Positions 20,996 to 57,775 of a stretch of 64,000 nt of DNA are shown here, one piece after another. The stretch comes from Patescibacteria group bacterium (GTDB lineage: Bacteria; Patescibacteriota; Microgenomatia; UBA10105; UBA927). Positions within the stretch are counted from its first letter, which is position 1. The number at the start of each line of letters is the position of its first letter. The notes beneath the pieces are model-generated. The model did no database searches. It had not been told where the DNA came from and saw only the letters and a program-made list of their open reading frames with translations. A program made the position numbers and the translations under genes. The stretch spans positions 147,581-211,580 of the forward strand of contig JBMOPU010000012.1 of NCBI GenBank assembly GCA_049322955.1, read 5' to 3'.

Positions 20996-21044
20996 CGACG
21001 ATTTGATCCTATAGGACATATTGGTGTACTATATGCCCATATAG

Positions 21045-21110: not shown

Positions 21111-21731
21111 ATGGCTGAAGGATTTGAAAAAACAACATTTCAGGAAGCGATAAGTGAAAGCGCCGTCGGCAAAGCCGTACGGGGAGCTATTTCCGAAGTT
21201 CAGCAAACCAATAAGGAATATTGGGATATACGGCAGGATATAGAGGGCAGAAAGAACGCCTCAGGAAAAGGGGTGTATAAACACTATGTCGAGAACATGG
21301 ATAAGATTCTGCACCACATGTATGCGGGCAAAGAGCTTGGTGTGGTCGGAAAAGTTGCCGAATTTTCCCAAAAAGTAGGAGCGAGAGTAGAGGCGGCGGT
21401 TGTATCTTTCGGTGCGGCAACCCTTGATATCCCGTATAACGTATTAACATGGCTTCCGCGTAAAATGAGCCCCTTCGGGCCGCCCAAGGATGTCTTTAAG
21501 CGATTGGCGCTTGCCCGTTTTGATATCAAGCTCGGACTTCGTGCCGCGGGGGCGGGTATTATGCGAGGGGAACTTGGGGTAGCGAAAGCCGTTCGCACCG
21601 GAGCAGAAGCGGTGTTGAGCGCTCCTGAGATTGCCGTACGTATGGCAAAGAAAAAGGTTGATCGCGTGGTGAACTGGATCAAAAGCCCGTTTGCCGAAGG
21701 CAAACCGTCAACACCCAAAGCGAGGCCATAA
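21111..21731 (+). CDS. hypothetical basic Gly/Ala-rich protein (cluster protein P1)
   Basis: Preceded by an AGGGAGG ribosome-binding site. It contains a GxxxG-rich segment (GLRAAGAGIMRGELGVAKAV). No known domain was recognised. Confidence 0.65.
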   Translation: MAEGFEKTTFQEAISESAVGKAVRGAISEVQQTNKEYWDIRQDIEGRKNASGKGVYKHYVENMDKILHHMYAGKELGVVGKVAEFSQKVGARVEAAVVSFGAATLDIPYNVLTWLPRKMSPFGPPKDVFKRLALARFDIKLGLRAAGAGIMRGELGVAKAVRTGAEAVLSAPEIAVRMAKKKVDRVVNWIKSPFAEGKPSTPKARP

Positions 21732-21756: not shown

Positions 21757-22086
21757 ATGGATGACAAACTGCGCGCCGTGGTAACGAGAGTCGAATTGTC
21801 AAAGCTTACCGAAAGCGAGAAAGAAGACGTCTATACCGCGCTTGCCGAGGGACTGCAGTCTACCGTCTGGCCGATTCTTATTAAATACATGCCGAAAGAT
21901 CAGCTCGATGATTTGGCGGCAAATCCGACCAAGGTCAATCTGGAAACATACGGCAAACTGATCGAAGATTCCGTAAAAGACGGACAAGCGTTAAAAGAAA
22001 TCGAAGCATTGATGCAGGATATCTTAACGGCTGTCGATAAGACCCTTACGGAGCAGGGAGTTCCCGAACTTCCGAGCACCGGCTAA
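21757..22086 (+). CDS. small acidic partner protein S1, paralog of the 22773 and 37397 genes
   Basis: It shares the motif LSxSEKExxYTxxAEGLQSTVWPxxxKYMP with the ORFs at 22773 and 37397. Confidence 0.7.
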   Translation: MDDKLRAVVTRVELSKLTESEKEDVYTALAEGLQSTVWPILIKYMPKDQLDDLAANPTKVNLETYGKLIEDSVKDGQALKEIEALMQDILTAVDKTLTEQGVPELPSTG

Positions 22087-22089
22087 CCT

Positions 22090-22737
22090 ATGACGGAAGT
22101 AACACCACCGGTTGAAACTCAAAAGCTTTCCGGAGCGGCAAGGATTGTTGAAAGCCTCAAAAAATGGTCGCACGACCATCTGACGCTCCAGGGTAGAGAG
22201 GACAATATCTATCTTAAAAAATACGCGCAGATCGCGGAAAAACTTCCCCAAGATATGTCTGAAAATCATATGGCGCTTCTTGAGATGCGACTGCGAAAGG
22301 ATGCGCACAGTGCCGCGGTCGGCTCCATTATCGTAGACGCATTGATGACGGGAGGGGTGCTTGTCGGGGCGGGTGCGCTATTAAAGAAAGTTGATTTTGC
22401 ATTTCCCAAGTTTGAACGAAAAATACGGACGGCACCAAGGCCCGTGCCGCCACGAGAACAAGTCGTGCCGCCACCGCCAAAAGCAAATGAACCTGCCAGG
22501 TGGAGTCTGTTTGCCTTTGCCAAAAAAGTAAGTCGTATCCTTGAAGGGCATGGTGAAGATGTCGATATGGACAAAGTGGTAGCGGGTGCCGATACAATGC
22601 TTGATAAAGCGGCAAAAGTGAAATGGGATGCCCCTGCTGATTGGATGGAGAAGGGGATTGATAAAGCCGGAAAGGGTCTTCAGAAACTCTGGGGATGGCT
22701 TGACGGTTCCTTAGGCAAACTTGCGGACAATATGTAA
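22090..22737 (+). CDS. hypothetical protein P2 with a glycine-zipper segment
   Basis: GGVLVGAGALL is followed by a Pro-rich linker. The start is 4 nt after the S1 stop. Confidence 0.6.
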   Translation: MTEVTPPVETQKLSGAARIVESLKKWSHDHLTLQGREDNIYLKKYAQIAEKLPQDMSENHMALLEMRLRKDAHSAAVGSIIVDALMTGGVLVGAGALLKKVDFAFPKFERKIRTAPRPVPPREQVVPPPPKANEPARWSLFAFAKKVSRILEGHGEDVDMDKVVAGADTMLDKAAKVKWDAPADWMEKGIDKAGKGLQKLWGWLDGSLGKLADNM

Positions 22738-22772
22738 GCCTAAGTGTGCTACTATAAATTTTAGGAGGAACT

Positions 22773-23084
22773 ATGGAAGAAACATTGAAGGCGATCATTG
22801 CAAAAATTGAAAAATCCCAACTATCTGAAACCGAGAAAAATGAGCTCTACACCGTGATTGCTGAAGGACTTCAGAGCACCGTTTGGCCCGTTATGGTAAA
22901 ATATATGCCACAGCAAGACCTAGAGTATTTGACCGCTGATCCGAAGTCACGCATGACCGTCGAAAGTTATGCAAAGCTTATAGGGGATGTGGTGAAAGAC
23001 CCTGAGGCATTAGCGGCGATTGAACAGGCGGCGGGCAGTGTGCTTGCCAATGTTGAGTCGGTTTTAGCAGAGGAAAATATATAA
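22773..23084 (+). CDS. small acidic partner protein S2 (paralog of S1)
   Basis: LSETEKNELYTVIAEGLQSTVWPVMVKYMP. Confidence 0.7.
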   Translation: MEETLKAIIAKIEKSQLSETEKNELYTVIAEGLQSTVWPVMVKYMPQQDLEYLTADPKSRMTVESYAKLIGDVVKDPEALAAIEQAAGSVLANVESVLAEENI

Positions 23085-23109
23085 TTGTTTGTACATGAAG
23101 GAGGTTCTT

Positions 23110-23937
23110 ATGACCGAAGTAGGAATGTCACCTGAGCGACAAGGATGGTTTGCGGGGCTCAAAGAAAAAGTCCGCAAGTCTTTTACCGTCCAGGGCGCGA
23201 AAGAAAAATTTTATCAGAACAACAGCGAACTTATCGCCAAAGCAACGGCAAACCTTTCCCCCGAGGATAAGCAGGCGGCATATGCCCAGATTGAACAGGA
23301 TGCGCTATCTTCGGCCAAAGTCGATGTTGCAACCCATTGGGGTGCCCTAGTATTGGGTACCACCGTTGCCGGTCTCGGCGGTGCGCTCCTAAACGACAAA
23401 GTCCGCGGGAGAGTAGGCGAGATGGGTAACTTCGGCAAAAAAGTTGCTGGTCTCGGTGACAAGGCAAAAGACGGGCTGATGCGGCTGGTCAGCCGTTTCA
23501 ATTTCCGAAGAGAGGGGAGTAGTAAGGGCCCCATTAATGTGGATGCAGTTTCCGAATCTATCAAGTCTGCCGCCGGTTATAAGCAACGGGTGGATGCGCT
23601 TACCCAGATGATCAACAGTGGAAAATATCAGGGCGAGGCATTGACCCGACTGCGAAGGAAACAAAGGTTGGCAATGCTAGATTTACGACGTGCCGACGCC
23701 TTGCTTTCCGGTCGTCCCGAGCTTAACAAAGTGCAGGAATTGTCCCGGCAAATCCAAGAAGCGATAAAGGCCGGCAAACCGGTTGATGATTTGGTGCGGC
23801 GACGAACTGACATGCAAAACGGATTGAATGATATTTTGTCTGCACGGAGAAAAGCCGGATTCAAAGGTTTGGAACGGGGCGACGTAAGCAACTATCAGAA
23901 AAAGATAGATGCCATAAAGGCTCGCAACAGATCCTAA
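23110..23937 (+). CDS. hypothetical protein P3 (glycine-zipper plus coiled-coil-like C-terminus)
   Basis: A GAAGGAGG ribosome-binding site precedes it. It contains VLGTTVAGLGGALL. The C-terminal half is Arg/Lys-rich and helical. Confidence 0.6.
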   Translation: MTEVGMSPERQGWFAGLKEKVRKSFTVQGAKEKFYQNNSELIAKATANLSPEDKQAAYAQIEQDALSSAKVDVATHWGALVLGTTVAGLGGALLNDKVRGRVGEMGNFGKKVAGLGDKAKDGLMRLVSRFNFRREGSSKGPINVDAVSESIKSAAGYKQRVDALTQMINSGKYQGEALTRLRRKQRLAMLDLRRADALLSGRPELNKVQELSRQIQEAIKAGKPVDDLVRRRTDMQNGLNDILSARRKAGFKGLERGDVSNYQKKIDAIKARNRS

Positions 23938-24032
23938 CGTCCTATTCTTCACTTTGTTGCCATACGCTGGATCAGCATATCTTGGGAAGTTATCTGTGTT
24001 TGTGGTGATGGAACAGCTCGTGCGTTACGAAG

Positions 24033-24062
24033 ATACACGAAAATACGCGTAAATACGCTACA
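24033..24062 (+). repeat. three tandem imperfect 10-bp repeats (ATACACGAAA / ATACGCGTAA / ATACGCTACA) overlapping the -10 TACAAT of the ABC gene promoter
   Basis: Read directly from the sequence. Confidence 0.5.
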
Positions 24063-24071
24063 ATAGTGGAT

Positions 24072-26297
24072 ATGACCGCAGAAGCGATCGGCAAACGACA
24101 GGAAGTTCCCCGTATTCAGGAATCAGGGCTGAACTTTTCTCCCGAATCGTTGGTTGCCGCGGGAAAACTCGCCTCAGAGATTGCCGCCAATACCCCCCCT
24201 GAAGCTTCCGACGTTTCCCAAATGGTAAAGACGATAGGCAGTGATCTGGCCAAAGAGGGACTTCCCATAGCAAAAGAAGACTATAAAGCCGTGATGAAGC
24301 AAGCGGAGGCCGCGTATCTTCGTCACCGCGGACAGCAAACGGTTCCCGAGCATACCCCCGACATTGAAACCGTCTCTCCGATAGATCTTGCCGAATACAG
24401 GGATGTGATGGGGGAGCTCTTTAAAACATATAAATTAGGAAGCGGCAGTTGGCAGACGGTGACCGGCATTTATGGAGCTACCGACCTTATCGGCAACGTG
24501 ATCGGCGGGTACCAGACGAAACCGTGGATAAGCGAAGAATCCCGGAAGGCATTTACGGAAAAAGTAGAAGGGGGACTTGAGCTTCTTCAGGCACGGCAAA
24601 CGCCGTTACAGGAGCTGGGCCGCACCCTCAAGCGTCTGCCCGCCGAAACAAAGAAAAAAGCCGCCGGGCTACTCCTTTCTGCTACCTGGCCGTGGGTCGC
24701 AGGAACGGCTCATTGGTTTATCGGCAGACAAGCGGAAAAATTTGCGCATAAACTCATCGTGCGGGAGGGAATGAATTTACAGAAGGCCGTCAATACCCGT
24801 ATCGCCGAATCGTTATTTATGCGGGATTTTGAGTTTCTTCATGACAAACCCGCGGGAGAAATCATGGAGATTGTTAACAACGGCAAATTATCGACCATTG
24901 ATCTGGTTCGTGTTACGTACACGGAGTTTCTTCCGACGATTTTGGGCATACTAAGCCAGTTGCCCCGCCAATATGTTACCGGAAAATTGGAATTTATGTC
25001 TTCACTTATCAAAATGCCGTTTCTTTTAATGCGCAGTGAACAAAACGCGAAACTTATGCAAGAAAATAGAGCGGCTGAACTTGCCAAAATGGATAAAGTG
25101 AACACGAAGCTCATGACCACGCTTGCCGGTCTTGAATCGGTGCGAACATCAGGAAATGCGACCGGCGGATCGGTAAGTATGCTTGATCTGTTAACGGAAC
25201 GTGACACGGTGGCGGGGAAGGGTCTTCGCCAAAAACTCGCGGGACAACGGCAGATGAATATGTTCTTTGACGTGATGGATGTCGCCCTGCCGTTTATGAG
25301 CGAGGCGTTGCAGTTTAATAAACAACGTCCACCGGGCAAGCTGTCGGGGGAGGGAGCATTTAACTTCGGTGTCGATGCACTGTCACGGGTGATTAACTCC
25401 AAGAATCAACAGATGGAGCTTCGTGCGGCATTTGCCGGTTTGACGAGACTCTATGTCGATAACATTATTCCCGATATTCAGGATATCAAGCGCATGGAGG
25501 AACTCCTCGGCAAATACGACGCGTTAGATAGGCCAAACGGCCCTCGGGAACGGGCTCGGGTTGCGGTGGGGAAGTTGACGAACACGGATATTCGTGTCGA
25601 GAACCTTTCTTATAAAGGCATCATCAATAACGTTTCCCTGGATATCCCGCAAGGATCATTCGTGACCATTAAGGGCGAGTCCGGAACGGGGAAAACGACA
25701 TTCATCCGTAATCTTGTCGGTCTTTACACGCCGGAATCGGGATCGGTGACGATTGGCGGCGTCCCCATCGACGGCATAAAAAAGTACGGAACCGAATCGG
25801 TATCGAGTATTGTCGGCTATGCCAATCAAAACCCTCAGATTCTTGAAGGCATGACTCTCAAGGAAAACTTGTTGTTATGGTCCCAACAGCAGGTTCCCGA
25901 TGCGGTACTGACGAAAACACTTAAGGATCTCCGTTTGGAGCATCTTACCGATAGACTTGATAAAGCGACCAAGCATTTTTCGGGCGGTGAACTTCGGCGT
26001 ATCGGCATAGCCCGGGCGCTTCTGAAAAATCCGAAAATACTTGTGCTTGATGAACCGACCGCAAGCCTTGATGAAGCGTCAGCACAGCAGGTCATGGATA
26101 TCATCCAGCGTTTGCGAATAGAGCGTCCTGATATGACGGTGGTTGCCATTACCCATGACCCGGTATTTGAAAATATCTCCGAGCGTATCATAGATTTTTC
26201 ACAGATAAATAAGTCAAGGTCATCGGAAGCATACGGAAACCGTCAGCTCAAAGATCACCAGATATTGGAAGCAATTGCCCGGCCGAAGCGGCCGTGA
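24072..26297 (+). CDS. ABC-exporter-like protein: divergent, weakly hydrophobic N-terminal domain fused to a C-terminal ABC ATPase
   Basis: Walker A (GESGTGKTT), the signature FSGGELRRIGIARAL, and Walker B (ILVLDEPTASLD) are present. The N-terminal 500 aa carry exporter-TMD-like coupling-helix motifs (FEFLHDKPAGEIMEIVNNGKLSTIDLV) but show little hydrophobicity. Confidence 0.82.
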   Translation: MTAEAIGKRQEVPRIQESGLNFSPESLVAAGKLASEIAANTPPEASDVSQMVKTIGSDLAKEGLPIAKEDYKAVMKQAEAAYLRHRGQQTVPEHTPDIETVSPIDLAEYRDVMGELFKTYKLGSGSWQTVTGIYGATDLIGNVIGGYQTKPWISEESRKAFTEKVEGGLELLQARQTPLQELGRTLKRLPAETKKKAAGLLLSATWPWVAGTAHWFIGRQAEKFAHKLIVREGMNLQKAVNTRIAESLFMRDFEFLHDKPAGEIMEIVNNGKLSTIDLVRVTYTEFLPTILGILSQLPRQYVTGKLEFMSSLIKMPFLLMRSEQNAKLMQENRAAELAKMDKVNTKLMTTLAGLESVRTSGNATGGSVSMLDLLTERDTVAGKGLRQKLAGQRQMNMFFDVMDVALPFMSEALQFNKQRPPGKLSGEGAFNFGVDALSRVINSKNQQMELRAAFAGLTRLYVDNIIPDIQDIKRMEELLGKYDALDRPNGPRERARVAVGKLTNTDIRVENLSYKGIINNVSLDIPQGSFVTIKGESGTGKTTFIRNLVGLYTPESGSVTIGGVPIDGIKKYGTESVSSIVGYANQNPQILEGMTLKENLLLWSQQQVPDAVLTKTLKDLRLEHLTDRLDKATKHFSGGELRRIGIARALLKNPKILVLDEPTASLDEASAQQVMDIIQRLRIERPDMTVVAITHDPVFENISERIIDFSQINKSRSSEAYGNRQLKDHQILEAIARPKRP

Positions 26298-26312
26298 CGA
26301 TAGCTTGCGAAA

Positions 26313-27374
26313 ATGGAAAAAACTGCCCATACTGAAGCTATGAATGATTTTTCGCCGGAAACACCCGAATCGCGAATATCCGTGTCACCTGAATTAGGGC
26401 AACGGATAGGGGAAGCTAAGTCGGGGATTGAAGAAAATAGGGACATGCCGGCTTCAGAAATAGCCACCAACACCGAACAAATGGGGCTTCTTGCTTCTTT
26501 GGGCGGGCTGTATAAGGATATGGCCAAAAAGAAGCTCGGTATCGCATTCAAAGATGTGAAAGCGGCGCTTGCCATTGTTCCCTTTGTTCCTCTCGCCAGC
26601 GAAGCGATAGCGGTAGCAAAGGGAGGGGCAAAATTGGAAAGTATTGCTACGAAAGTGCATAAGGCCGCGTATGCGGAGTCCGCCGCAATCAAGGCTCAAA
26701 AAACGGCAAATAAAGCGGAGCGTTGGGCAAAATGGTTTCGCAAAAGCGAAAAAGCGCAACAGCGATTGGGTGCGGCGAAGGACGCACTGGGAATCGCAAA
26801 CGCTGAAGCATCCACCGCCACTGCCGCGGCAAAGAAGGCTTTGGAACGGGGATTGAAACAGGGAGTGCCTGTTGAGGGATCGGCCTCACGATTCGTGCGC
26901 AAACATATTGTTCATGACATCCGTGATGCCGACTATGTACTTAATTACGAAAAAGCGATAAAAAGCGGTAAAGCGTTGACCGATGCGGAAAAAATACTTT
27001 CCACGGCAACGGGGGAAGTTGCGGCAAAAACGTTTGGGGAAAAAGCGGTTCATAAGGCAAAAACAATCGGCAAACATACGCTTCTTCACTCGCTAGGCCC
27101 CATCATCGATCCGACGCCGAATGTCCCACATGCGGTTGTGCTGGGCTCATTTGGTGCGGAATTATTCGGTCAAGTATGGGCGGGACTTATTCCGCCCGTC
27201 TGGCAGTATCTTCACAACCGATATGAAGACGTCAAAGTCGGGTGGGATACGGCGGTCAAAGCCAAAGATATTATCACAACGCATTTTTCTCAAAAAGTCG
27301 ATAAACTGAAAACACCGGAAGTGGCAAAAGCCGCCGAGGTTTTTGTGCCGTCAGATGCTCCCGCGGCACCATGA
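26313..27374 (+). CDS. hypothetical Ala/Lys-rich helical protein P4
   Basis: A 353-aa protein with amphipathic helical repeats. Its start is 13 nt after the ABC stop. Confidence 0.6.
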   Translation: MEKTAHTEAMNDFSPETPESRISVSPELGQRIGEAKSGIEENRDMPASEIATNTEQMGLLASLGGLYKDMAKKKLGIAFKDVKAALAIVPFVPLASEAIAVAKGGAKLESIATKVHKAAYAESAAIKAQKTANKAERWAKWFRKSEKAQQRLGAAKDALGIANAEASTATAAAKKALERGLKQGVPVEGSASRFVRKHIVHDIRDADYVLNYEKAIKSGKALTDAEKILSTATGEVAAKTFGEKAVHKAKTIGKHTLLHSLGPIIDPTPNVPHAVVLGSFGAELFGQVWAGLIPPVWQYLHNRYEDVKVGWDTAVKAKDIITTHFSQKVDKLKTPEVAKAAEVFVPSDAPAAP

Positions 27375-27378
27375 TGCT

Positions 27379-27651
27379 ATGAATAAAAAAATCGCGCTTG
27401 TCACCCTCATTGAAGCGAGTATCATCCTGTCGGATGAAGATAGGCTTATGTTGCTTGATTTGGTGCCAGGACTTACCGAAAAACAGGTGGATGCGCTGGG
27501 CAAGTTTTTCGCCCTGGAGCGCAAATTTGTTTTGAGCAATGAGGATGATGTAAAACAAAAGATTGAATCATTGCTTACCGGTCTGGATCGACAGGATACC
27601 GATACTGTGTATGTAGGGAGCGGGAATGCATTCGACCAAGGAACAAAATAA
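27379..27651 (+). CDS. small acidic partner protein S4
   Basis: A 90-aa protein starting 2 nt after the P4 stop. Its N-terminal LSDEDRLMLLDLV motif resembles those of the other small partners. Confidence 0.55.
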   Translation: MNKKIALVTLIEASIILSDEDRLMLLDLVPGLTEKQVDALGKFFALERKFVLSNEDDVKQKIESLLTGLDRQDTDTVYVGSGNAFDQGTK

Positions 27652-27699
27652 CATAAGAAGTTAACTATTACTTTGTCAGTTTATTCATGAGTCGTACCT

Positions 27700-28593
27700 A
27701 TGGCAGAGAGTATCATCAAAGACTTTAAAGGAAAAAACGATTGGGTCTATGTCGGTAAAAGTGAAGCCCCGAAACCTTCCGAGAAAAAAGCTGACACGTT
27801 ATTTCATCAGTATATGCAGGAAGTGTTTGACGTGGCGGCTCCCGTGATGATCGGCGAGCTTGACGGGGCGGCAGGGGCGCAAGCGGCCCTTGCCTCTGCA
27901 ACGCTTTCGCTTGCAGACAAAGCGCATACCGACGCCACTTCAACCGCCTCCCTCCCGGATAAATCAACATTTGCCAAACGATGGCTCGCGCTGGAACAGC
28001 GGGTCGGCAATGATGATCACCAAAATAGGTTGGGAAAGCTTCTGACCAGTTTTGTATATATGGGCGGGTCATTTGCTATGAACCTGGGGAGCGAAGTGGT
28101 TGCCGATGTATTGTATCGCGGCAAATCGAAAGTACCGCTCCCTCTGGGACGTTCCATCAACATCTCAAAAGAAACGGGTAATCAGCGCATGCTTGACGCA
28201 GGCTGGGAGTATCTCACCGATTATGGGGTCGAAAAAACGGTGGACTGGTCGGCTCAGAAGCTGGCCAATCGGGAAAATATCGGCTTTGTTTCGCCGCTCT
28301 CGCGTGCGATCAGTAAAATCGGCAACACGATTATCAATGCCACGAGAAATTTTGATGAACATAATTTTTCCACGGCCGTAAAACGCTCGCTCTTAAGCCC
28401 GGGATTTATCGAAGGGGCGTTTCGTTTTGCAGGTGCGCTTCCGGGCGGCGGATTTATCAAGGAATTGTACGGCAAAGCCAATAAACAAATCATGAAAGGG
28501 GAAGGAGTCATTCCCTTGGGAGCTGATCTTGCGTTTAACATGATATTTGCCAAGGTGCTTTACAAGATGCAACAGGGAGGAGCAAAGCCATAA
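27700..28593 (+). CDS. hypothetical protein P5
   Basis: A 297-aa protein with GELDGAAGAQAALASA and a C-terminal Gly-rich region. Confidence 0.6.
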   Translation: MAESIIKDFKGKNDWVYVGKSEAPKPSEKKADTLFHQYMQEVFDVAAPVMIGELDGAAGAQAALASATLSLADKAHTDATSTASLPDKSTFAKRWLALEQRVGNDDHQNRLGKLLTSFVYMGGSFAMNLGSEVVADVLYRGKSKVPLPLGRSINISKETGNQRMLDAGWEYLTDYGVEKTVDWSAQKLANRENIGFVSPLSRAISKIGNTIINATRNFDEHNFSTAVKRSLLSPGFIEGAFRFAGALPGGGFIKELYGKANKQIMKGEGVIPLGADLAFNMIFAKVLYKMQQGGAKP

Positions 28594-28911
28594 ATGGATA
28601 TATCGATACAGCAATTTTGTGATCAGGTACTGCGAAGTCGGGCTCTTTCTCAGGAACAGAAAGAACTGCTCGTTGCCGATCCTGAAGCATTGCCGTCCTC
28701 ATACCGTGAGGAGGTTGCGGCCATTCTCTCGGCATTTGACGACCAATCGATGCAACGGGAGGAGTACCTACGAAATGCCGTGGAAGACCGTATGCGGCAG
28801 TTTGAAAAAAAACTTGAAGAAGAGGGGACTGATGCGCCGACGACGCATGCATTACTCAAAAAGGCAAAAGCGTTGAGTGCATCATTGTTTCCCGTAAAGC
28901 ACGTTGTTTGA
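28594..28911 (+). CDS. small acidic partner protein S5
   Basis: Its start abuts the P5 stop. It carries LSQEQKELLVADPEAL. Confidence 0.55.
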   Translation: MDISIQQFCDQVLRSRALSQEQKELLVADPEALPSSYREEVAAILSAFDDQSMQREEYLRNAVEDRMRQFEKKLEEEGTDAPTTHALLKKAKALSASLFPVKHVV

Positions 28912-28947
28912 CGGCGCAGGGAATCTCCTATACGCTAGAAGAAGAGT

Positions 28948-29934
28948 ATGCAACACCATCATGAAATACCGCAGTGGCACCCGCCCCAAGAAGCGATGCC
29001 CGCCAAGGAAGGCAATTTGACGAAGGAGCAGTCGCTCTTTCAACGGCTGGGAGTAGCCGTAGCGGAAACGGTCAAAGATATCCGTGATGCAAATGATATG
29101 GCGAAACGAAAGTTTGATGGAGATAGCGCGCTGATGCGCGTAGCTCGTGGTGCGCTGACCGGTGCGGTTGGCGCGGGGCTTGAACTTGCCACGGATGATA
29201 TGTTTAGTAAGGCCTGGCGGGGGGAAGGACCTATCTTCGAGCGATTTATCATGGGTGAAAATACCGGCAAAAAACTCGCAAAACTTTCGGAACAACATCC
29301 CAGGATTTCCCATTTTGTGAAAGAAGGTACCCAAGATGTTGCACTCGCGGCGCTTTACAACTTTATCGCCTATAGGTCACAGCCGATTTTTACCCAAGTC
29401 GAATCACCTCATGTGCTTCGGTCGCTCACCGCGGATGCTTTGGAAGCCGGATTTATCAACAGCATCCCGGCGGAAATGAAAACAGCGGTTTCTGCCATAA
29501 ATCAACCCAAAGTGGATAGGTGGCAACATCAGCGTCGTCGTTTTCGGCGCCCTAAGCAAAAAAAATATCCCTTGGGGGGTGAAGGTTCGGAGATGATGAT
29601 GAATGATTTTTTCAAAAAAAAGCCTTCAGCAGATATGCAAGCCGCACGAATATCGGGGAAAAATACCCCAGGAACTGTCCCCGAGAGGCAGGGGGTATTG
29701 GGAAATGTCTTTAATCTTTCCAATCCCGTTACGCAACTAGGTCTTGAGATGGTATGGTCGGGCATGACCACCTTTGCAAAAAACTTTAGTGAACTGAGGA
29801 AAACACGCAAAGTGAATGAATGGTCGGGTGGCAAAGCAACGGTATCGGGAAAAGGAGAGAACGTGTATTACGGGAATTCGCATGGGAAATACACAAAGAG
29901 AAGGGGGTATGATGAGCGACTTGACGATCTATAA
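28948..29934 (+). CDS. hypothetical protein P6
   Basis: A 328-aa protein with GALTGAVGAGLELA and a basic C-terminal tail. Confidence 0.6.
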   Translation: MQHHHEIPQWHPPQEAMPAKEGNLTKEQSLFQRLGVAVAETVKDIRDANDMAKRKFDGDSALMRVARGALTGAVGAGLELATDDMFSKAWRGEGPIFERFIMGENTGKKLAKLSEQHPRISHFVKEGTQDVALAALYNFIAYRSQPIFTQVESPHVLRSLTADALEAGFINSIPAEMKTAVSAINQPKVDRWQHQRRRFRRPKQKKYPLGGEGSEMMMNDFFKKKPSADMQAARISGKNTPGTVPERQGVLGNVFNLSNPVTQLGLEMVWSGMTTFAKNFSELRKTRKVNEWSGGKATVSGKGENVYYGNSHGKYTKRRGYDERLDDL

Positions 29935-30202
29935 AAAGATACAAAATACCAAGCTGTTTAGCGATGCGCAGAAAGTGGCGCTTCTTGTTGCCATTGTTGA
30001 TGCCACCGATGAGGATAAAGCAAAACTGGAAGCCGGCATTGACGAATTCGACGCACGTTACGACAACGCCATTAAAAAGCATACGGCACAGATACAGTCA
30101 CTCCTGGGACACACGATGAAGGACCTTACCCCGGAAGAGAAAAAAGCTCAGGAAACGGCATTGCGATCGATCAGAGCTGGCTTTGGACTTCTGACCTCGT
30201 AA
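29909..30202 (+). CDS. small acidic partner protein S6
   Basis: The ribosome-binding site AGAAGGGGG lies inside the 3' end of P6, giving a 26-nt overlap. The protein carries LFSDAQKVALLVAIVDATDEDKAKLEAG. Confidence 0.55.
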   Translation: MMSDLTIYKKIQNTKLFSDAQKVALLVAIVDATDEDKAKLEAGIDEFDARYDNAIKKHTAQIQSLLGHTMKDLTPEEKKAQETALRSIRAGFGLLTS

Positions 30203-30286
30203 CCACACAAGCCTATTGCTATAGGACACTTCTTGTGGTATACTTCACGATAGTACCCAAGCATTGTGTTTGGGTTTGTTGTATCT

Positions 30287-31012
30287 ATGTCAAAAGAATC
30301 ACAACCAACCAGAGCCTATACGCCGGCGGAACAAGGGTTCCAGCGCCTGCTCATTCGCGAACAGAAGCATGAATCCCAGCCGGGTGACGGTCTCCGACGA
30401 CTGGGAATCAATTCCTCGCTCCTGATCGGATCAACCGCTCTTGATCTTGCCGAAAGTCATCTTGTCGATGCCGTGATTCGAAATCCCATGCATGATAGGA
30501 TTCATCAAATTAAGGAAAAGGGACCCAACTTTACCGAACAGGCAAAGCGGGCACAAGGCGTGCAATTTGCCGCCGAATTCGTTGAAGAGTGGGCATCCGA
30601 CAGTATTTATGCCAATATGGCAAATGCATGGGTTCGTGCCATGACCGGTATGGATGATGCTAAGTATGTTTCCGAAACCGCCGCATTCCTTGCGGAGTGG
30701 GGGAACGTCATTTCCCAGGTATTTTTGGCAGACAGACTGTATGGGAAGACAAAGACACATCACGGACATACGGTGCCGCAAACATATGGCAAGGTGAAAC
30801 TTGCCTACGCGTCGGCTGACTTTTTGAATCCCGTCAACGTCGAAGCGGCGATCCGGGTGATGGAAGAAGTACCCGTTATCGGGAAAGCAGTCTCCTGGAT
30901 GCATGATAAGACGGATCATTTGCTGGAAACCGCCGCCGTTCGGCTCGGGAGCGGCATTGCCGGAAAAGGTATTCTCGGCTATCATATCGGACGAAACGTA
31001 AAAGCGTTATAA
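30287..31012 (+). CDS. hypothetical protein P7
   Basis: Preceded by a CTATAGG element and a TATACT -10. The C-terminus is GSGIAGKGILGYHIG. Confidence 0.55.
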   Translation: MSKESQPTRAYTPAEQGFQRLLIREQKHESQPGDGLRRLGINSSLLIGSTALDLAESHLVDAVIRNPMHDRIHQIKEKGPNFTEQAKRAQGVQFAAEFVEEWASDSIYANMANAWVRAMTGMDDAKYVSETAAFLAEWGNVISQVFLADRLYGKTKTHHGHTVPQTYGKVKLAYASADFLNPVNVEAAIRVMEEVPVIGKAVSWMHDKTDHLLETAAVRLGSGIAGKGILGYHIGRNVKAL

Positions 31013-31033
31013 ACGGCTTTTCATCTTTTTGCT

Positions 31034-31903
31034 ATGACAGCAGAGACACTAAGCGTACGAATACAGTATCCGCAGGATAATCCCATCTCGGCTGAGAAAA
31101 CCTCCTCTCAGGATGGCGCCGCGATCTGGAAGAAAGCATATGCGGAATCCCGACAAAAGCATTGGCAACAGGTATTCCAAGTCGGTGACTATTCCCCCTA
31201 TGACAAAGCGCGCAAGCTCCCGCAGGGTACTGCGCTTCGTGAGGCACTCTACGAATCTCTCACCGATCCGATTTCTTTTGTAACGCATATCGGCGAACAT
31301 ATCCGTAAGGTCGATACCGATCTTCGCGGCGGAAAAGATATCGGGGGTGCGAAAGAGCGATGGGAGCGAGTCGGGGCATTTGCCAGTATGGCGGTGCTCT
31401 TTACCGCATTTGATTACGCAACAAGTAAGCCATTTGAGCGATTTTTTCCCATGATAAAGAATAAGGTATTAACCCCTGAGGAACTTCGTCTGAATGCGCG
31501 GATGGGGGCGATGAAAAAGATCCTTGACGTCATGAACGATAAATACGCGACGGCATTAGGCAATATGCTGGTAGAGAAAATTTCCGGCAAGCGGGGATTT
31601 ATCCATGAAGTGGCGGATAAGGGTGCAGACACCATCCAATCGGGATTTGAGGAAACCAATGACTTGGTCAACGGCGCAACACTGGAAAGTTATATGCGGA
31701 TTTTTTCTCAGGTACCGATTGTGGGAGCGTTATTTGAGCAGGGGATGACCCGTCTTTCCCTGTTGCAGGAAAAGTCATCGCTCCACACCGCTACGGGCAA
31801 AATGCTTTATATGGCGCTTGGCGTATTTATCCGAGATAATCGAAAAGCAGACAAAATGGATGGCGCTTCTTTGGCAGGACTTATTGCCAGGACAATCCTT
31901 TAA
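31034..31903 (+). CDS. hypothetical protein P8
   Basis: A 289-aa protein with the N-terminus MTAETL. No domain was recognised. Confidence 0.55.
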   Translation: MTAETLSVRIQYPQDNPISAEKTSSQDGAAIWKKAYAESRQKHWQQVFQVGDYSPYDKARKLPQGTALREALYESLTDPISFVTHIGEHIRKVDTDLRGGKDIGGAKERWERVGAFASMAVLFTAFDYATSKPFERFFPMIKNKVLTPEELRLNARMGAMKKILDVMNDKYATALGNMLVEKISGKRGFIHEVADKGADTIQSGFEETNDLVNGATLESYMRIFSQVPIVGALFEQGMTRLSLLQEKSSLHTATGKMLYMALGVFIRDNRKADKMDGASLAGLIARTIL

Positions 31904-31927
31904 TCGAATAACGAAGTGATTTGGGTG

Positions 31928-31956
31928 TTGACAGTTTTTTATCCGCTGAGTACAAT
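31928..31956 (+). promoter_or_regulatory. sigma70 promoter TTGACA-17-TACAAT heading the tRNA-Ala/23S/5S unit or a short leader RNA
   Basis: Near-consensus hexamers with 17-nt spacing. Confidence 0.6.
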
Positions 31957-32105
31957 ACCTTTTGCCTTTGTTCGCCAATTATCGGCGATACGGAATGCGG
32001 AGGCAAGACTTTTCTTTTTCATGAGAATCACCACTTCATACAAAACCGACCTTTTTGGGCGACGTTTGCGTGTGATGTAGAACTTCTTACAAGGAGAGAG
32101 TCCCG

Positions 32106-32133
32106 ATCCCGCATAAAAGGCGGGATTTTTTTA
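32106..32133 (+). terminator. hairpin (ATCCCGC-N7-GCGGGAT) followed by a T7 run: an intrinsic terminator or boxB-like leader hairpin
   Basis: Read directly from the sequence. It lies between the promoter and tRNA-Ala. Confidence 0.5.
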
Positions 32134-32211
32134 TCCCTTTTGCACATTACCTAAGCATGATCGACGGAGAAGAACTGTGGGTTCGCCTTCGGGTCTGCCC
32201 ATTCGTTTAAT

Positions 32212-32284
32212 GGGCCCGAAGTTTACCTGGTTGAACGCTTCATTTGCAATGAAGAGGCAGGCGGTTCGACTCCGCCCGGGTCCA
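32212..32284 (+). tRNA. tRNA-Ala(UGC)
   Basis: A manually folded 73-nt cloverleaf: acceptor GGGCCCG/CGGGTCC with the G3:U70 Ala identity pair, anticodon loop TTTGCAA, T-loop GGTTCGACT, discriminator A. CCA is not encoded. Confidence 0.88.
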
Positions 32285-32349
32285 CCGATGTTCTTGTATC
32301 GGGAGTAGCTACATATATATGTATATACTCTCGCGACAAGAGCGCGAGT

Positions 32350-32362
32350 TGCTCTTTAACAA
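32350..32362 (+). promoter_or_regulatory. boxA antitermination element TGCTCTTTAACAA in the tRNA-23S spacer
   Basis: A near-exact match to the bacterial rRNA-operon boxA consensus. Confidence 0.75.
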
Positions 32363-32529
32363 TATTGCCAAATGACTTCTTGTAAGACAGGTGAAATTCC
32401 TGCTCTACAAGAATTGAAAGTAATGAAGTAATGAGGTAGTTGCCGCGTAAGGGGGAGTGAATCCCACTTATCGTGGCCATTTTTAGTTGAGGGAACAAGG
32501 GTCGTCTTCGAGACGAATCTTTTGTTCTC

Positions 32530-35840
<3,311 letters not shown>

Positions 35841-35967
35841 GGAACAAAGGACGTTTTTTGCCGAGAGGCAAAAACACCTTGTTTCTCTTGGCGAAAATGA
35901 CACGAAAAGTCGGTCATTCTCCCTTATGTTGCAATTACCTTTATAATAAGAAAAGATTTTATCGTTG

Positions 35968-36086
35968 AGCCTTTCGGTCTCTTACGCGATGTGGTACCAC
36001 CCTTTCCCATTCCGAACAGGGAAGTGAAACACATTAGCGCCAACAATACTCGTTTCGCAAGGAACCTGGAAGATAGGTCGAGGCCG
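35968..36086 (+). rRNA. rrf: 5S ribosomal RNA (approximate ends)
   Basis: Conserved blocks CCCATTCCGAACAGGGAAGTGAAAC and TAGCGCCAACAATACT are present. The length is about 119 nt. Confidence 0.75.
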
Positions 36087-36113
36087 GGGGACTCAACGAT
36101 AAAACGGCAAATT

Positions 36114-36139
36114 ATCCCTAGTGACCCTAGGGATTTTTT
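36114..36139 (+). terminator. rho-independent terminator of the rRNA unit (ATCCCTAG-TGACC-CTAGGGAT plus a T6 run)
   Basis: A perfect 8-bp stem followed by a U-tract. Confidence 0.8.
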
Positions 36140-36177
36140 GTGGGATTTGGCCTATAGGTGTATAATACGCTCTAACT

Positions 36178-36651
36178 ATGGTAGAACGAGGTGCTACTTC
36201 AGTAATGCCGCGAGGCAAAGAACTCATTAACCGGGGGATGGATAAAGTCGTCACCGGAGTGATTCTCACCGCGGGCAATGAAATTGTTCATGCGGTGAAG
36301 TTCGGGCTTGTCGGTGCGGCGATCGGTATTCCCGCAGGTATCCTGGGCGGCAATGTTGTTGAAGGGGTCAAAAGCTTCGGAAAGATAGGTGTTGATGTGG
36401 GTGTATTGTGGGGATGGCATACGGCACATACTGACTTTAATAAAACTGCCGAAAAAAACGGCAATCCACCGGTCCGGTGGTATGACTGGTTAGGGGCGAC
36501 CATCATTTCATCCAATGCACGTAATCATGAACGGCCGTTTCACAAAGCAACGCAGACGGAAGCCATATTATGGGGACAATTCTTTAATCCTACGTCAACC
36601 AGCGGCATGAAAGATGTGTTACACGGAGCAATACAGGTAGTGTTCGGTTAA
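36178..36651 (+). CDS. hypothetical glycine-zipper protein P9
   Basis: A CCTATAGG element and a TGTATAAT -10 at 36151-36166 give a near-leaderless start; the alternative start is the ATG at 36205. The protein carries FGLVGAAIGIPAGILGGNVVEG. Confidence 0.55.
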   Translation: MVERGATSVMPRGKELINRGMDKVVTGVILTAGNEIVHAVKFGLVGAAIGIPAGILGGNVVEGVKSFGKIGVDVGVLWGWHTAHTDFNKTAEKNGNPPVRWYDWLGATIISSNARNHERPFHKATQTEAILWGQFFNPTSTSGMKDVLHGAIQVVFG

Positions 36652-36671
36652 TACGATATACTTTTATCACT

Positions 36672-37394
36672 ATGGCAGAACGGCCGGTACACCACGAACT
36701 CGCTCCCAAGAAAACGCTTGCCGATCAGGTACAGGCGATATTTGAACGCCGGGCCACCAAAGGCGAGAGGAAACTCATTTTGGAAACCTACGAAACCAAG
36801 TTTGATGCCCTCCTTCAAAAATTACCCAAAGAACAACAGGAAAATATCATGGTGAAGATCCAGAAAGTTTTGACCACCATCCGCGGCGTGTTTTCCGAAT
36901 ACGGCGCACGCATCACCGATTTTGCGCGAAAAGTGTTTTTATGGCCGATGATTGCCGCAGACAAGGATTTCCCAAAAGATAAATATTATCAGATTGAACT
37001 CGCCAGAGCAAAAGCCTGGGGGGAGTTTGCCAAAGACACGACCAAAACCGCAACCGCCGAACGTACGGCCTATCGTGACCACTTTGCGTCAACCGTTGTT
37101 TCCCATGCTCAAGTATTGGGAGCAGGAGGGGCGATCGGCATGGTCGGTCTCGGTGTGGCTGAGGGTGCAAAAATAGGTGCCGTTGCCGGGTTGGGACTGC
37201 AGGGTGCCGCCGTCGGAGCAATTGCCGGAGGTATTCTGGGAGGCGCCTATTCATTCGGGCTTTTTGTAAAAGATAAAATTGTTGGTCCTCCGGTTGTGTA
37301 TTATGATGTATTTGCGGGGGCAGGAAAGCGGGGAGTGTCAATTGATATTTCCCAACAAGTGGTACAAAAAGTACCCGCCACTACCTACGCATAA
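36672..37394 (+). CDS. hypothetical glycine-zipper protein P10
   Basis: A long GxxxG array, GAGGAIGMVGLGVAEGAKIGAVAGLGLQGAAVGAIAGGILGGAYSFGLF. Confidence 0.6.
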   Translation: MAERPVHHELAPKKTLADQVQAIFERRATKGERKLILETYETKFDALLQKLPKEQQENIMVKIQKVLTTIRGVFSEYGARITDFARKVFLWPMIAADKDFPKDKYYQIELARAKAWGEFAKDTTKTATAERTAYRDHFASTVVSHAQVLGAGGAIGMVGLGVAEGAKIGAVAGLGLQGAAVGAIAGGILGGAYSFGLFVKDKIVGPPVVYYDVFAGAGKRGVSIDISQQVVQKVPATTYA

Positions 37395-37396
37395 GC

Positions 37397-37714
37397 ATGG
37401 ATGCAATTGACGAGGTTCTTACCCGGATTATCACTACGGTTTCGCAATCAAGCCTTTCCGAAACGGACAAAAATGATGTCTACGCACAGCTTACCGTCGG
37501 CATGCACCGACTCGTCTGGCCGATTTTGCTTGCCCATGTGCCCCAATACCTTTTGGACGATGCCGTGAGTAATCCCCAGCGTTTTACCGTAGAAGACTAT
37601 GCCGAACTTATTGATATAGCGCTCAAAAATCCCGCAACCGCCAAAGAAATGCATGAAGAACTGCTCGGGGCTCTTACCGAGGTCGATGCACTGGTCACCA
37701 AAGCCGTGAGTTGA
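37397..37714 (+). CDS. small acidic partner protein S10, third paralog of S1/S2
   Basis: LSETDKNDVYAQLTVGMHRLVWPILLAHVP. The start is 2 nt after the P10 stop. Confidence 0.65.
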   Translation: MDAIDEVLTRIITTVSQSSLSETDKNDVYAQLTVGMHRLVWPILLAHVPQYLLDDAVSNPQRFTVEDYAELIDIALKNPATAKEMHEELLGALTEVDALVTKAVS

Positions 37715-57515: not shown

Positions 57516-57586
57516 GGGCCCGTAGTACACCGGTAGTATATCTCCATGGCATGGAGGAGAAAGGGGTTCAATTCCCCTCGGGTCCA
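57516..57586 (+). tRNA. tRNA-Ala(GGC)
   Basis: A manually folded 71-nt cloverleaf: acceptor GGGCCCG/CGGGTCC with G3:U70, anticodon loop ATGGCAT, T-loop TTCAATT. Confidence 0.82.
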
Positions 57587-57671
57587 CCCATATAACTTTT
57601 GACGTGTGACCGTTGACTATTCACCGGAAAATATGGTTAAACGCTAAGTATTACCGGTGAACGGTTATTTC

Positions 57672-57744
57672 GGGCCTGTAGCTTAGTTGGTAGAGCGCCG
57701 CATTCGCATTGCGGAGATCAGCGGTTCGACTCCGCTCAGGTCCA
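57672..57744 (+). tRNA. tRNA-Ala(CGC)
   Basis: A 73-nt cloverleaf: acceptor GGGCCTG/CAGGTCC with G3:U70, anticodon loop TTCGCAT, T-loop TTCGACT. Confidence 0.88.
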
Positions 57745-57775
57745 CTTAAGAGGTATAACACGGGAGCAAGTCCAC

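Follow-up and report, generated by a model that had tools for sequence, protein, structure and literature searches.

What do three copies of a small acidic protein do in a bacterial gene cluster, when two of them lie on one side of a ribosomal RNA (rRNA) unit and the third on the other? The question is raised by a stretch of 64,000 nucleotides from a Patescibacteria group bacterium (assembly GCA_049322955.1, contig JBMOPU010000012.1, positions 147,581 to 211,580), here called the window, in which a first-pass annotation made from the letters alone had pointed to three paralogous acidic open reading frames (ORFs) of about 105 amino acids. All three were confirmed where they had been placed, and we call them family A:

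21757-22086, + strand: A1, a small acidic helical protein of family A, 109 amino acids, isoelectric point (pI) 4.40
22773-23084, + strand: A2, a family-A protein of 103 amino acids, pI 4.38
37397-37714, + strand: A3, a family-A protein of 105 amino acids, pI 4.41, of a divergent subtype (GMHRLVWPILLAHVP)

The answer that we favour, tentatively and with a probability of roughly 0.4, is that family A would serve as a chaperone or adaptor for the larger basic proteins encoded beside it (families F, J, B and c12), in a system linked to an ABC exporter.

The three proteins align over their full length with a single 1-residue indel, and 20 columns are identical in all of them, among these a V-W-P triplet. 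BLASTP identities were 45% for A1 against A2 (E 5e-34) and 36% for A1 against A3 (E 9e-23); A2 and A3 are 39% identical across 77 amino acids (E 8e-19), and the net charge of each is -9 to -10, at a pI of 4.38-4.41. The conserved block is therefore present in pairwise alignment and the alternative of a merely compositional likeness fails; judged from these alignments, A1, A2 and A3 are true paralogs by homology, with shared composition excluded. The motif by which they were first recognised is exact in A2 but only approximate in A1, which reads LTESEKEDVY instead of LSE[ST][ED]KN.

Family A has a narrow distribution. When 5.8 billion proteins were searched through a word index, 134 relatives came up, all of about 102-112 amino acids, whose named sources were only hypothetical proteins of Gottesmanbacteria/Patescibacteria. 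HMMER, run exhaustively over 1.84 billion cluster representatives with a profile of 65 sequences, returned only 95 family-A proteins. In a scan that took one genome from each species there were 25 A loci, where the informative labels were Gottesmanbacteria/Patescibacteria metagenome-assembled genomes, except for one Woesebacteria. No relative was found on viral contigs and so a phage origin was rejected. Scans of A and all of its neighbours against Pfam, NCBIfam, PHROGs and PADLOC gave nothing above threshold except an ABC ATPase domain. A sub-threshold match to Arg_decarbox_C in 24 of the 65 members (best E 4e-4) was set aside as generic helical similarity. A full-text literature search returned nothing on this gene cluster.

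An AlphaFold2 model of A2, built with the 65-sequence alignment, has six helices (predicted local distance difference test score, pLDDT, 87.6; predicted template modelling score, pTM, 0.70). Foldseek found no match for it in the PDB (none at E<4) or in BFVD, and when the A alignment was run as a sequence profile against the PDB, designed helical repeats alone came up, at E>=0.03. The invariant residues are S15, K22, G32, V37-W38-P39, P46, L50, I70, L91 and V94, with W38 lying inside the predicted helix 19-43 as part of the V-W-P triplet, and their types (S, L, K, G, V-W-P, P, I) suggest a structural role more than catalysis. A hydrophobicity scan found neither a hydrophobic segment nor a signal-like N-terminus. 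Family A is thus an uncharacterised family restricted to Gottesmanbacteria, without described relatives and with a fold unmatched by Foldseek in the PDB and BFVD, and it is probably a soluble, cytoplasmic protein of a binding type.

For the comparison of loci, ORFs were called in 27 related loci (named L001-L030) and then clustered locally. Tandem A-A fusions exist naturally, in three settings at least, namely protein P0121, protein P0010 (which ends at a contig edge) and loci L023/L024; all single-domain homologs of P0121 align to its first half only. The fusions suggest that A would act as a dimer of paralogs. A further protein, P0153, consists of A with a C-terminal extension that matches no partner family, and so it was uninformative as a candidate fusion of A to a partner. 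Outside the window, P0157 (2888 amino acids) has a hydrophobic, signal-peptide-like N-terminus and over 17 repeats, each about 93 amino acids long, 17 of which weakly match A residues 8-46 (SSLPQAQKNEITQEF against SQLSETEKNELYTVI); homology was set aside here, the likeness being probably a shared helix N-cap (helix-capping) motif. The most divergent A copy (36% identical, at 9992-10315 of L026) has a neighbourhood of a different kind, with a 2339-amino-acid protein carrying a Ser/Thr kinase domain upstream, a partner-like gene of 196 amino acids that overlaps A by 4 nucleotides, also upstream, and a PCMT-like methyltransferase downstream.

The genes next to the A copies in the window encode larger proteins:

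21111-21731, + strand: F, 206 amino acids, pI 9.9, of the partner superfamily and the first gene of the cluster, with no Pfam or NCBIfam match
22090-22737, + strand: B1, 215 amino acids, basic, with a Gly/Ala-rich hydrophobic segment at residues 80-98
23110-23937, + strand: B2, about 275 amino acids, very basic, of the same BLAST family as B1 (the ORF opens at TTG 23089, the likely start being ATG 23110 after AAGGAGG)
36178-36651, + strand: I, a glycine-zipper protein of 157 amino acids with three GxxxGxxxG motifs
36672-37394, + strand: J, 240 amino acids, basic, carrying at residues 161-190 four GxxxGxxxG motifs that overlap, immediately upstream of A3

Each A copy had been described as directly following a larger glycine-zipper protein, which stands as regards position but only partly as regards sequence, for the label suits I and J well, B1 (no strict GxxxGxxxG) in part and F poorly, F being without a strict zipper and without a strongly hydrophobic segment. 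With a pI of 9.1-10.1 and a net charge of +4 to +20, the large neighbours are basic and so complementary in charge to A. Profile comparison with hhalign gave probabilities of 95.6% for F with J, 94.6% for c12 (a family found in related loci) with F, 90.4% for B with c12 and 73.6% for B with J, and by these scores F, J, B and c12 are one predicted remote-homology group; the links do not look like a composition artefact, because A scores below 8% against every other cluster family.

The spacing of these genes is tight. In the window 3 nucleotides separate A1 from B1, 2 separate J from A3 and 25 separate F from A1, so that A1 is coupled more tightly to the gene that follows it than to F before it. 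Across the fetched loci the median gap from A to B is 4.5 nucleotides, with 7 of 20 being overlaps of 4 or 8 nucleotides, and the other median gaps are -1 (A to c12), 2 (J to A), 5 (c12 to A), 21 (F to A) and 37 nucleotides (B to A). Shine-Dalgarno sequences were seen before A1 (AAAGGAG), A2, F and B2 (from ATG 23110) and none before B1 or A3, which, with the gaps of 2-3 nucleotides there, suggests translational coupling from A1 to B1 and from J to A3. There is about one A domain per partner gene across loci.

Conservation is asymmetric. Orthologs of A (including those of A1) are 54-90% identical where GDH is 64-96% identical, and those of F, B, E and H (the last two from further along the cluster) are 25-45% identical or undetectable. 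Compared with its ortholog in L004, B1 is 52-65% identical over the N-terminal 80 amino acids and 30-35% over the remainder. J has 82 homologs at 43-77% identity. Modelled alone in AlphaFold2, J gave long, low-confidence helices (pLDDT 49.8, pTM 0.29) despite an alignment of 64 sequences, which, set against the confident model of A, fits a protein that would need a partner or a membrane.

Between B2 and the rRNA unit the cluster continues with an ABC gene and a block of further large and small genes:

24072-26297, + strand: an ABC half-transporter-like protein with an ABCB/CydCD/type I secretion system (T1SS)-type ATPase domain and a divergent N-domain (the ORF opens at GTG 24066)
26313-27374, + strand: E, a large unannotated protein
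27379-27651, + strand: s2, a small protein after E
27700-28593, + strand: D1, a large unannotated protein
28594-28911, + strand: c17, a small protein after D1
28948-29934, + strand: H, a large unannotated protein
29912-30202, + strand: s2b, a small protein after H
30287-31012, + strand: D2, a large unannotated protein
31034-31903, + strand: D3, a large unannotated protein

The C-terminal nucleotide-binding domain of the ABC protein matches Pfam ABC_tran at E 7e-32, as well as CydD/CydC/PrtD-type NCBIfam models and PDB entries, and its Walker A (GESGTGKT), signature (FSGGEL) and Walker B (ILVLDEP) motifs are intact. The 500-amino-acid N-domain of the window protein has no match to ABC_membrane (PF00664), which appears below threshold in 6 of the 22 ABC family members (best E 2.8e-4), and the family profile matches the transmembrane domain of ABCB6 weakly (E 0.03). 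This N-domain is weakly hydrophobic, with a Kyte-Doolittle maximum of 1.21 and no segment above 1.25. Most cluster loci have 1-3 ABCB-type ATPase genes, some copies being without a consensus Walker A or Walker B. The cluster ABC protein is probably a very divergent half-transporter, as far as its domain matches tell.

The large proteins of 26313-31903 are mostly basic. The small proteins s2 and c17 form a second small helical family (pI 4.6-6.1) encoded directly after E, D1 and H, with s2 also following I in other genomes. They match each other with an hhalign probability of 93.9% and A with one below 8%, and so s2 and c17 were rejected as divergent A copies. The theme of a large protein with a small putative partner therefore occurs twice in the cluster, by these profile scores with unrelated small families.

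Many of the large proteins begin alike. A start of M-[STAV]-E was found in 11 of 11 F proteins, 11 of 12 c12, 9 of 10 I and 25 of 33 B, compared with 10 of 165 housekeeping proteins (6% of those flanking the cluster) and at most 1 of 48 small proteins; this start (or MTAE) is carried by 50-100% of the members in 7 of 11 large families (those listed being F, c12, I, B, c24, c31, J and D), and in the window by F, B1, B2, D1, D3, I, J and the ABC protein. About 10-20 residues in, a motif [VF][FY]-x-G-x(3-4)-[PK] is shared by D, c12, c31, some B proteins and, as recognised by eye only, I, the corresponding region of D1 in the window reading DWVYVGKSEAPKP. These shared N-terminal features may be a common recognition or processing signal.

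The third A copy had been placed, with I (36178) and J (36672), beyond a tRNA-23S-5S unit, and that arrangement holds: the unit, at 32212-36089, separates copies 2 and 3, and the zippers of I and J are real. Its genes and the signals around it are:

31928-31956: a promoter-like site matching at 11 of 12 positions (consensus scan)
32212-32286, + strand: tRNA-Ala(TGC)
32527-35844, + strand: 23S rRNA, containing a group I intron at 35193-35543
35973-36089, + strand: 5S rRNA
36114-36134, + strand: a terminator-like hairpin with a T-run, directly after the 5S gene (consensus scan)
36161-36166: TATAAT, about 12 nucleotides before the start of I (consensus scan)

The scan also found a promoter-like site before the S1 gene. 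Given the terminator-like hairpin and the TATAAT that lie ahead of the start of I, the rRNA genes look like a separate transcription unit by which the cluster is interrupted, rather than one with which it is co-transcribed. The rRNA genes of this genome are unlinked, because no 16S gene lies beside tRNA-Ala-23S-5S anywhere in the 64-kb window. The introns of the 23S gene differ among relatives, with a LAGLIDADG ORF inside the 23S gene of L002 and two group I introns in L029, and elsewhere in the window two further tRNA-Ala genes (57516-57588 and 57672-57745, anticodons GGC and CGC) lie 84 nucleotides apart.

In the window the order is F-A-B-A-B-ABC-E-s2-D-c17-H-s2-D-D, tRNA-Ala-23S-5S, I-J-A, S1-RadA. 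Across the loci the conserved order is Trx-TrxR-FNR-GDH, then alternating F/A/B/c12, then 1-3 ABC copies, E-s2, D-c17, H-s2, D-D, tRNA-Ala-23S-5S, I-J-A3 and S1-c28-RadA. The sequence of main block, tRNA-Ala-23S-5S, (I)-J-A3, S1 and RadA recurs in the window, L002, L004/L028, L009/L027, L020/L029 and L030, with L005 covering only the upstream side of the rRNA arrangement, so that adjacency of cluster and rRNA is conserved and at least six genomes have the rRNA unit within the cluster. That the cluster is split by, or extends around, this unit had been proposed at the outset and is borne out by the homology of J to F and by relatives in which the outlying genes stand in the main block: a J-A pair lies there next to GDH in RBG_16_52_11 (L001) and L010, and the I family in L006, L011, L013, L016, L017, L019 and L022. 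As the J and I families are shared with the main block, the genes on the far side of the rRNA form one gene set with it. The A3-type copy stands in every case after J and before the S1 gene (J-A3-S1 in L002, L027, L028, L029 and L030), and A1- and A2-type copies never adjoin rRNA or ribosomal genes. Copy numbers vary between genomes (A 1-5, ABC 1-3, and B, c12 and D likewise). The nested, unlinked tRNA-23S-5S unit is a stable synteny marker for the clade.

A palindrome, CCTATAGG, occurs exactly three times in the window, each time within the cluster (21008-21015, 29369-29376 and 36151-36158). Two of these copies are in a promoter-like context, 103 nucleotides before F and 27 before I, and the palindrome is kept 90-103 nucleotides before F in L004, L005 and L015 and 27 before J in L002. 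When one mismatch was tolerated, no enrichment appeared overall, and ATACGCT occurs 10 times where 5 are expected. A shared operator made of these two elements was set aside, as they are suggestive of promoter context only and overall not significant.

We therefore return to what A might do beside these proteins. On the chaperone or adaptor reading, A, probably in the form of an A-A' dimer, would bind in the cytoplasm to a conserved region of the neighbouring protein, N-terminal or helical, and would keep an aggregation-prone protein bearing a Gly/Ala zipper soluble or inactive; the client would then enter the membrane or be exported across it, and the divergent ABCB-type half-transporters of the cluster would plausibly assist in this. 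Support for this comes from the conserved adjacency and tight spacing, from the remote homology that unites F, J, B and c12, from the ratio of about one A per partner and the complementary charges, from the conservation of A while F, B, E and H diverge (with B1 keeping its N-terminal 80 amino acids), and from the non-catalytic look of the invariant residues, the lack of a hydrophobic or signal segment in A and the presence of ABC genes in most loci. The M-[STAV]-E signature is compatible with a common recognition feature. Several points weigh against it. For A there is no match among known chaperones, whether by family or by fold; the cognate neighbour is ambiguous, each A having partner-type genes on both sides; and the N-domain of the ABC protein is unusually hydrophilic, which leaves an exporter role in doubt. 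In RBG_16_52_11 (L001) there are five copies of A and no ABC gene lies within 10 kb, the distant A copy of L026 stands in a different context, and J, the partner of A3, is itself conserved (43-77%), so that a conserved chaperone with a variable client is not a universal pattern here.

A bolder extension, which we regard as rather improbable, is that the whole block of about 16 genes would be an unrecognised export or insertion system specific to Gottesmanbacteria and driven by ABC proteins, in which two unrelated chaperone families (A and s2/c17) would escort some ten large, fast-evolving basic clients with the M-[STA]-E signature to atypical, weakly hydrophobic ABCB-like ATPases for delivery to the cell surface or a host cell.

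Other explanations account for parts of the same evidence. A, its neighbours and the ABC protein might together form a permanent, lineage-specific complex associated with the membrane (for example in envelope, attachment or transport), with A as a peripheral cytoplasmic subunit. The gene order of the block is conserved across Gottesmanbacteria, A and J are both well conserved and many of the junctions are tight or overlapping, all as such a complex would have it, but the variable copy numbers and the rapid turnover of many members would be unusual for a machine of fixed stoichiometry, and we think this unlikely, if still plausible. It is distinctly unlikely that A is an immunity protein or antitoxin which, in the producer, neutralises a neighbour that is an exported, bacteriocin-like toxin, the basic glycine-zipper proteins being such toxins, whether they form pores or act in another way. 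The tight pairing of a small acidic with a basic protein several times per locus, the ABCB/T1SS/bacteriocin-type ATPases in the cluster, the fast evolution of the partners and the glycine zippers of I and J would all suit a toxin locus. Immunity proteins would, however, be expected to diversify together with their toxins, and A stays conserved (54-90%) as its neighbours diverge; the cluster occupies a fixed syntenic site between housekeeping genes in all sampled genomes rather than a variable island, and A-A tandem fusions are unexpected for such proteins. Nor does A match EntA_Immun or Colicin_Pyocin in Pfam, or immunity proteins of the PDB in Foldseek, and the features of a bacteriocin exporter were likewise not found: only ABC_tran and P-loop families match the ABC protein, with no C39 peptidase domain, no cluster protein has a Pfam or NCBIfam match to an HlyD-type adaptor, and no double-glycine leader motif was seen in the N-termini of the partners.

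It is highly doubtful that A is itself cargo, that is, an exported helical heterodimer of the Esx/WXG100 kind for which the larger proteins and ABC ATPases would be the export apparatus. A is about 100 amino acids long, acidic and helical, has several paralogs, and its fusions hint at dimers like EsxA/EsxB, but it has no WXG100 match, its model has six helices instead of a two-helix hairpin and a V-W-P within a helix instead of a W-x-G turn, the sole ATPase type in the locus is ABC, with no FtsK/SpoIIIE-type (EssC/EccC) ATPase, and the M-[STAV]-E signature is on the large proteins and not on A. Least probable of all is that the adjacency is just inherited synteny and A acts elsewhere, for instance with the ribosome or RNA, for although A3 always lies before the S1 gene near the rRNA unit (between 5S rRNA and rpsA) and a single Joint Genome Institute (JGI) record labels an A homolog 'RNA-binding protein YhbY', none of the 65 members has a match to CRS1_YhbY or another RNA-binding Pfam family, RNA binding is improbable for so acidic a protein, A1- and A2-type copies keep away from ribosomal genes and the J-A pairs of L001 and L010 are far from rRNA.

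Patescibacteria, or Candidate Phyla Radiation bacteria, have small genomes with many genes of no known function, and how they build their envelopes and interact with hosts is poorly understood. The Gottesmanbacteria among them are tiny, uncultured groundwater bacteria, and those studied here have reduced genomes and probably live as symbionts. In this setting a conserved, lineage-specific block of about 16 genes, of which the only annotated part is an ABC ATPase domain, is of some interest, bringing together ABC ATPases, quickly evolving proteins that bear membrane-type segments and two families of small putative partners. Should the chaperone reading be true, this would make the locus a concrete, testable candidate for a system of secretion or surface display particular to the lineage; should A not be a chaperone, it is still a clean new protein family with a confidently predicted fold.

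By analogy with described systems, A is functionally most like small helical secretion chaperones or small acidic immunity proteins, and it is placed in neither group because every testable criterion of sequence and fold failed. The glycine-zipper bacteriocins of the Cdz type consist of an ABC T1SS with glycine-zipper proteins, and their immunity protein is a membrane protein. The present cluster likewise encodes ABC proteins together with glycine-zipper proteins (I and J), but it has no HlyD-type adaptor, its zipper proteins are much larger and A is soluble. WXG100/Esx proteins, and the Lap1/Lap2 partners of LXG toxins in type VII secretion, are also acidic, helical paralogs of about 100 amino acids that form (hetero)dimers, some of them targeting larger substrates; WXG100 (PF06013), however, gave no match at E<=1 for A1-A3 or for any of the 65 members, the A model is a six-helix bundle with V-W-P within a helix, and the locus has no EssC/EccC ATPase. 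Im7/Im9 of the colicin DNases, EntA-im and PedB are small acidic helical-bundle proteins that lie next to a basic toxin within ABC-exporter loci, much as A lies next to basic proteins, those of class IIa being helical proteins of about 100 amino acids. A differs from them in having no EntA_Immun or Colicin_Pyocin match in Pfam, no PDB sequence match at E<0.03 and no Foldseek match in the PDB at E<4, and the setting differs too, for the partners here are of 200-280 amino acids without double-glycine leaders, the ABC protein is without C39 and A is conserved, not hypervariable.

The flagellar chaperones FliS, FliT and FlgN and the type III secretion system chaperones CesA/CesAB are acidic, cytoplasmic, all-alpha proteins of about 100-140 amino acids, encoded beside their clients, which are helical proteins prone to aggregate that they bind and stabilise ahead of export. 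Neither Pfam nor the PDB nor Foldseek gave a match that links A to these chaperones, and the locus holds no type III or flagellar apparatus, the ATPases nearby being of the ABC type only; what A shares with FliS, FliT, FlgN and CesAB is its size, its charge, its predicted helical fold and its place beside the larger proteins that would be its clients.

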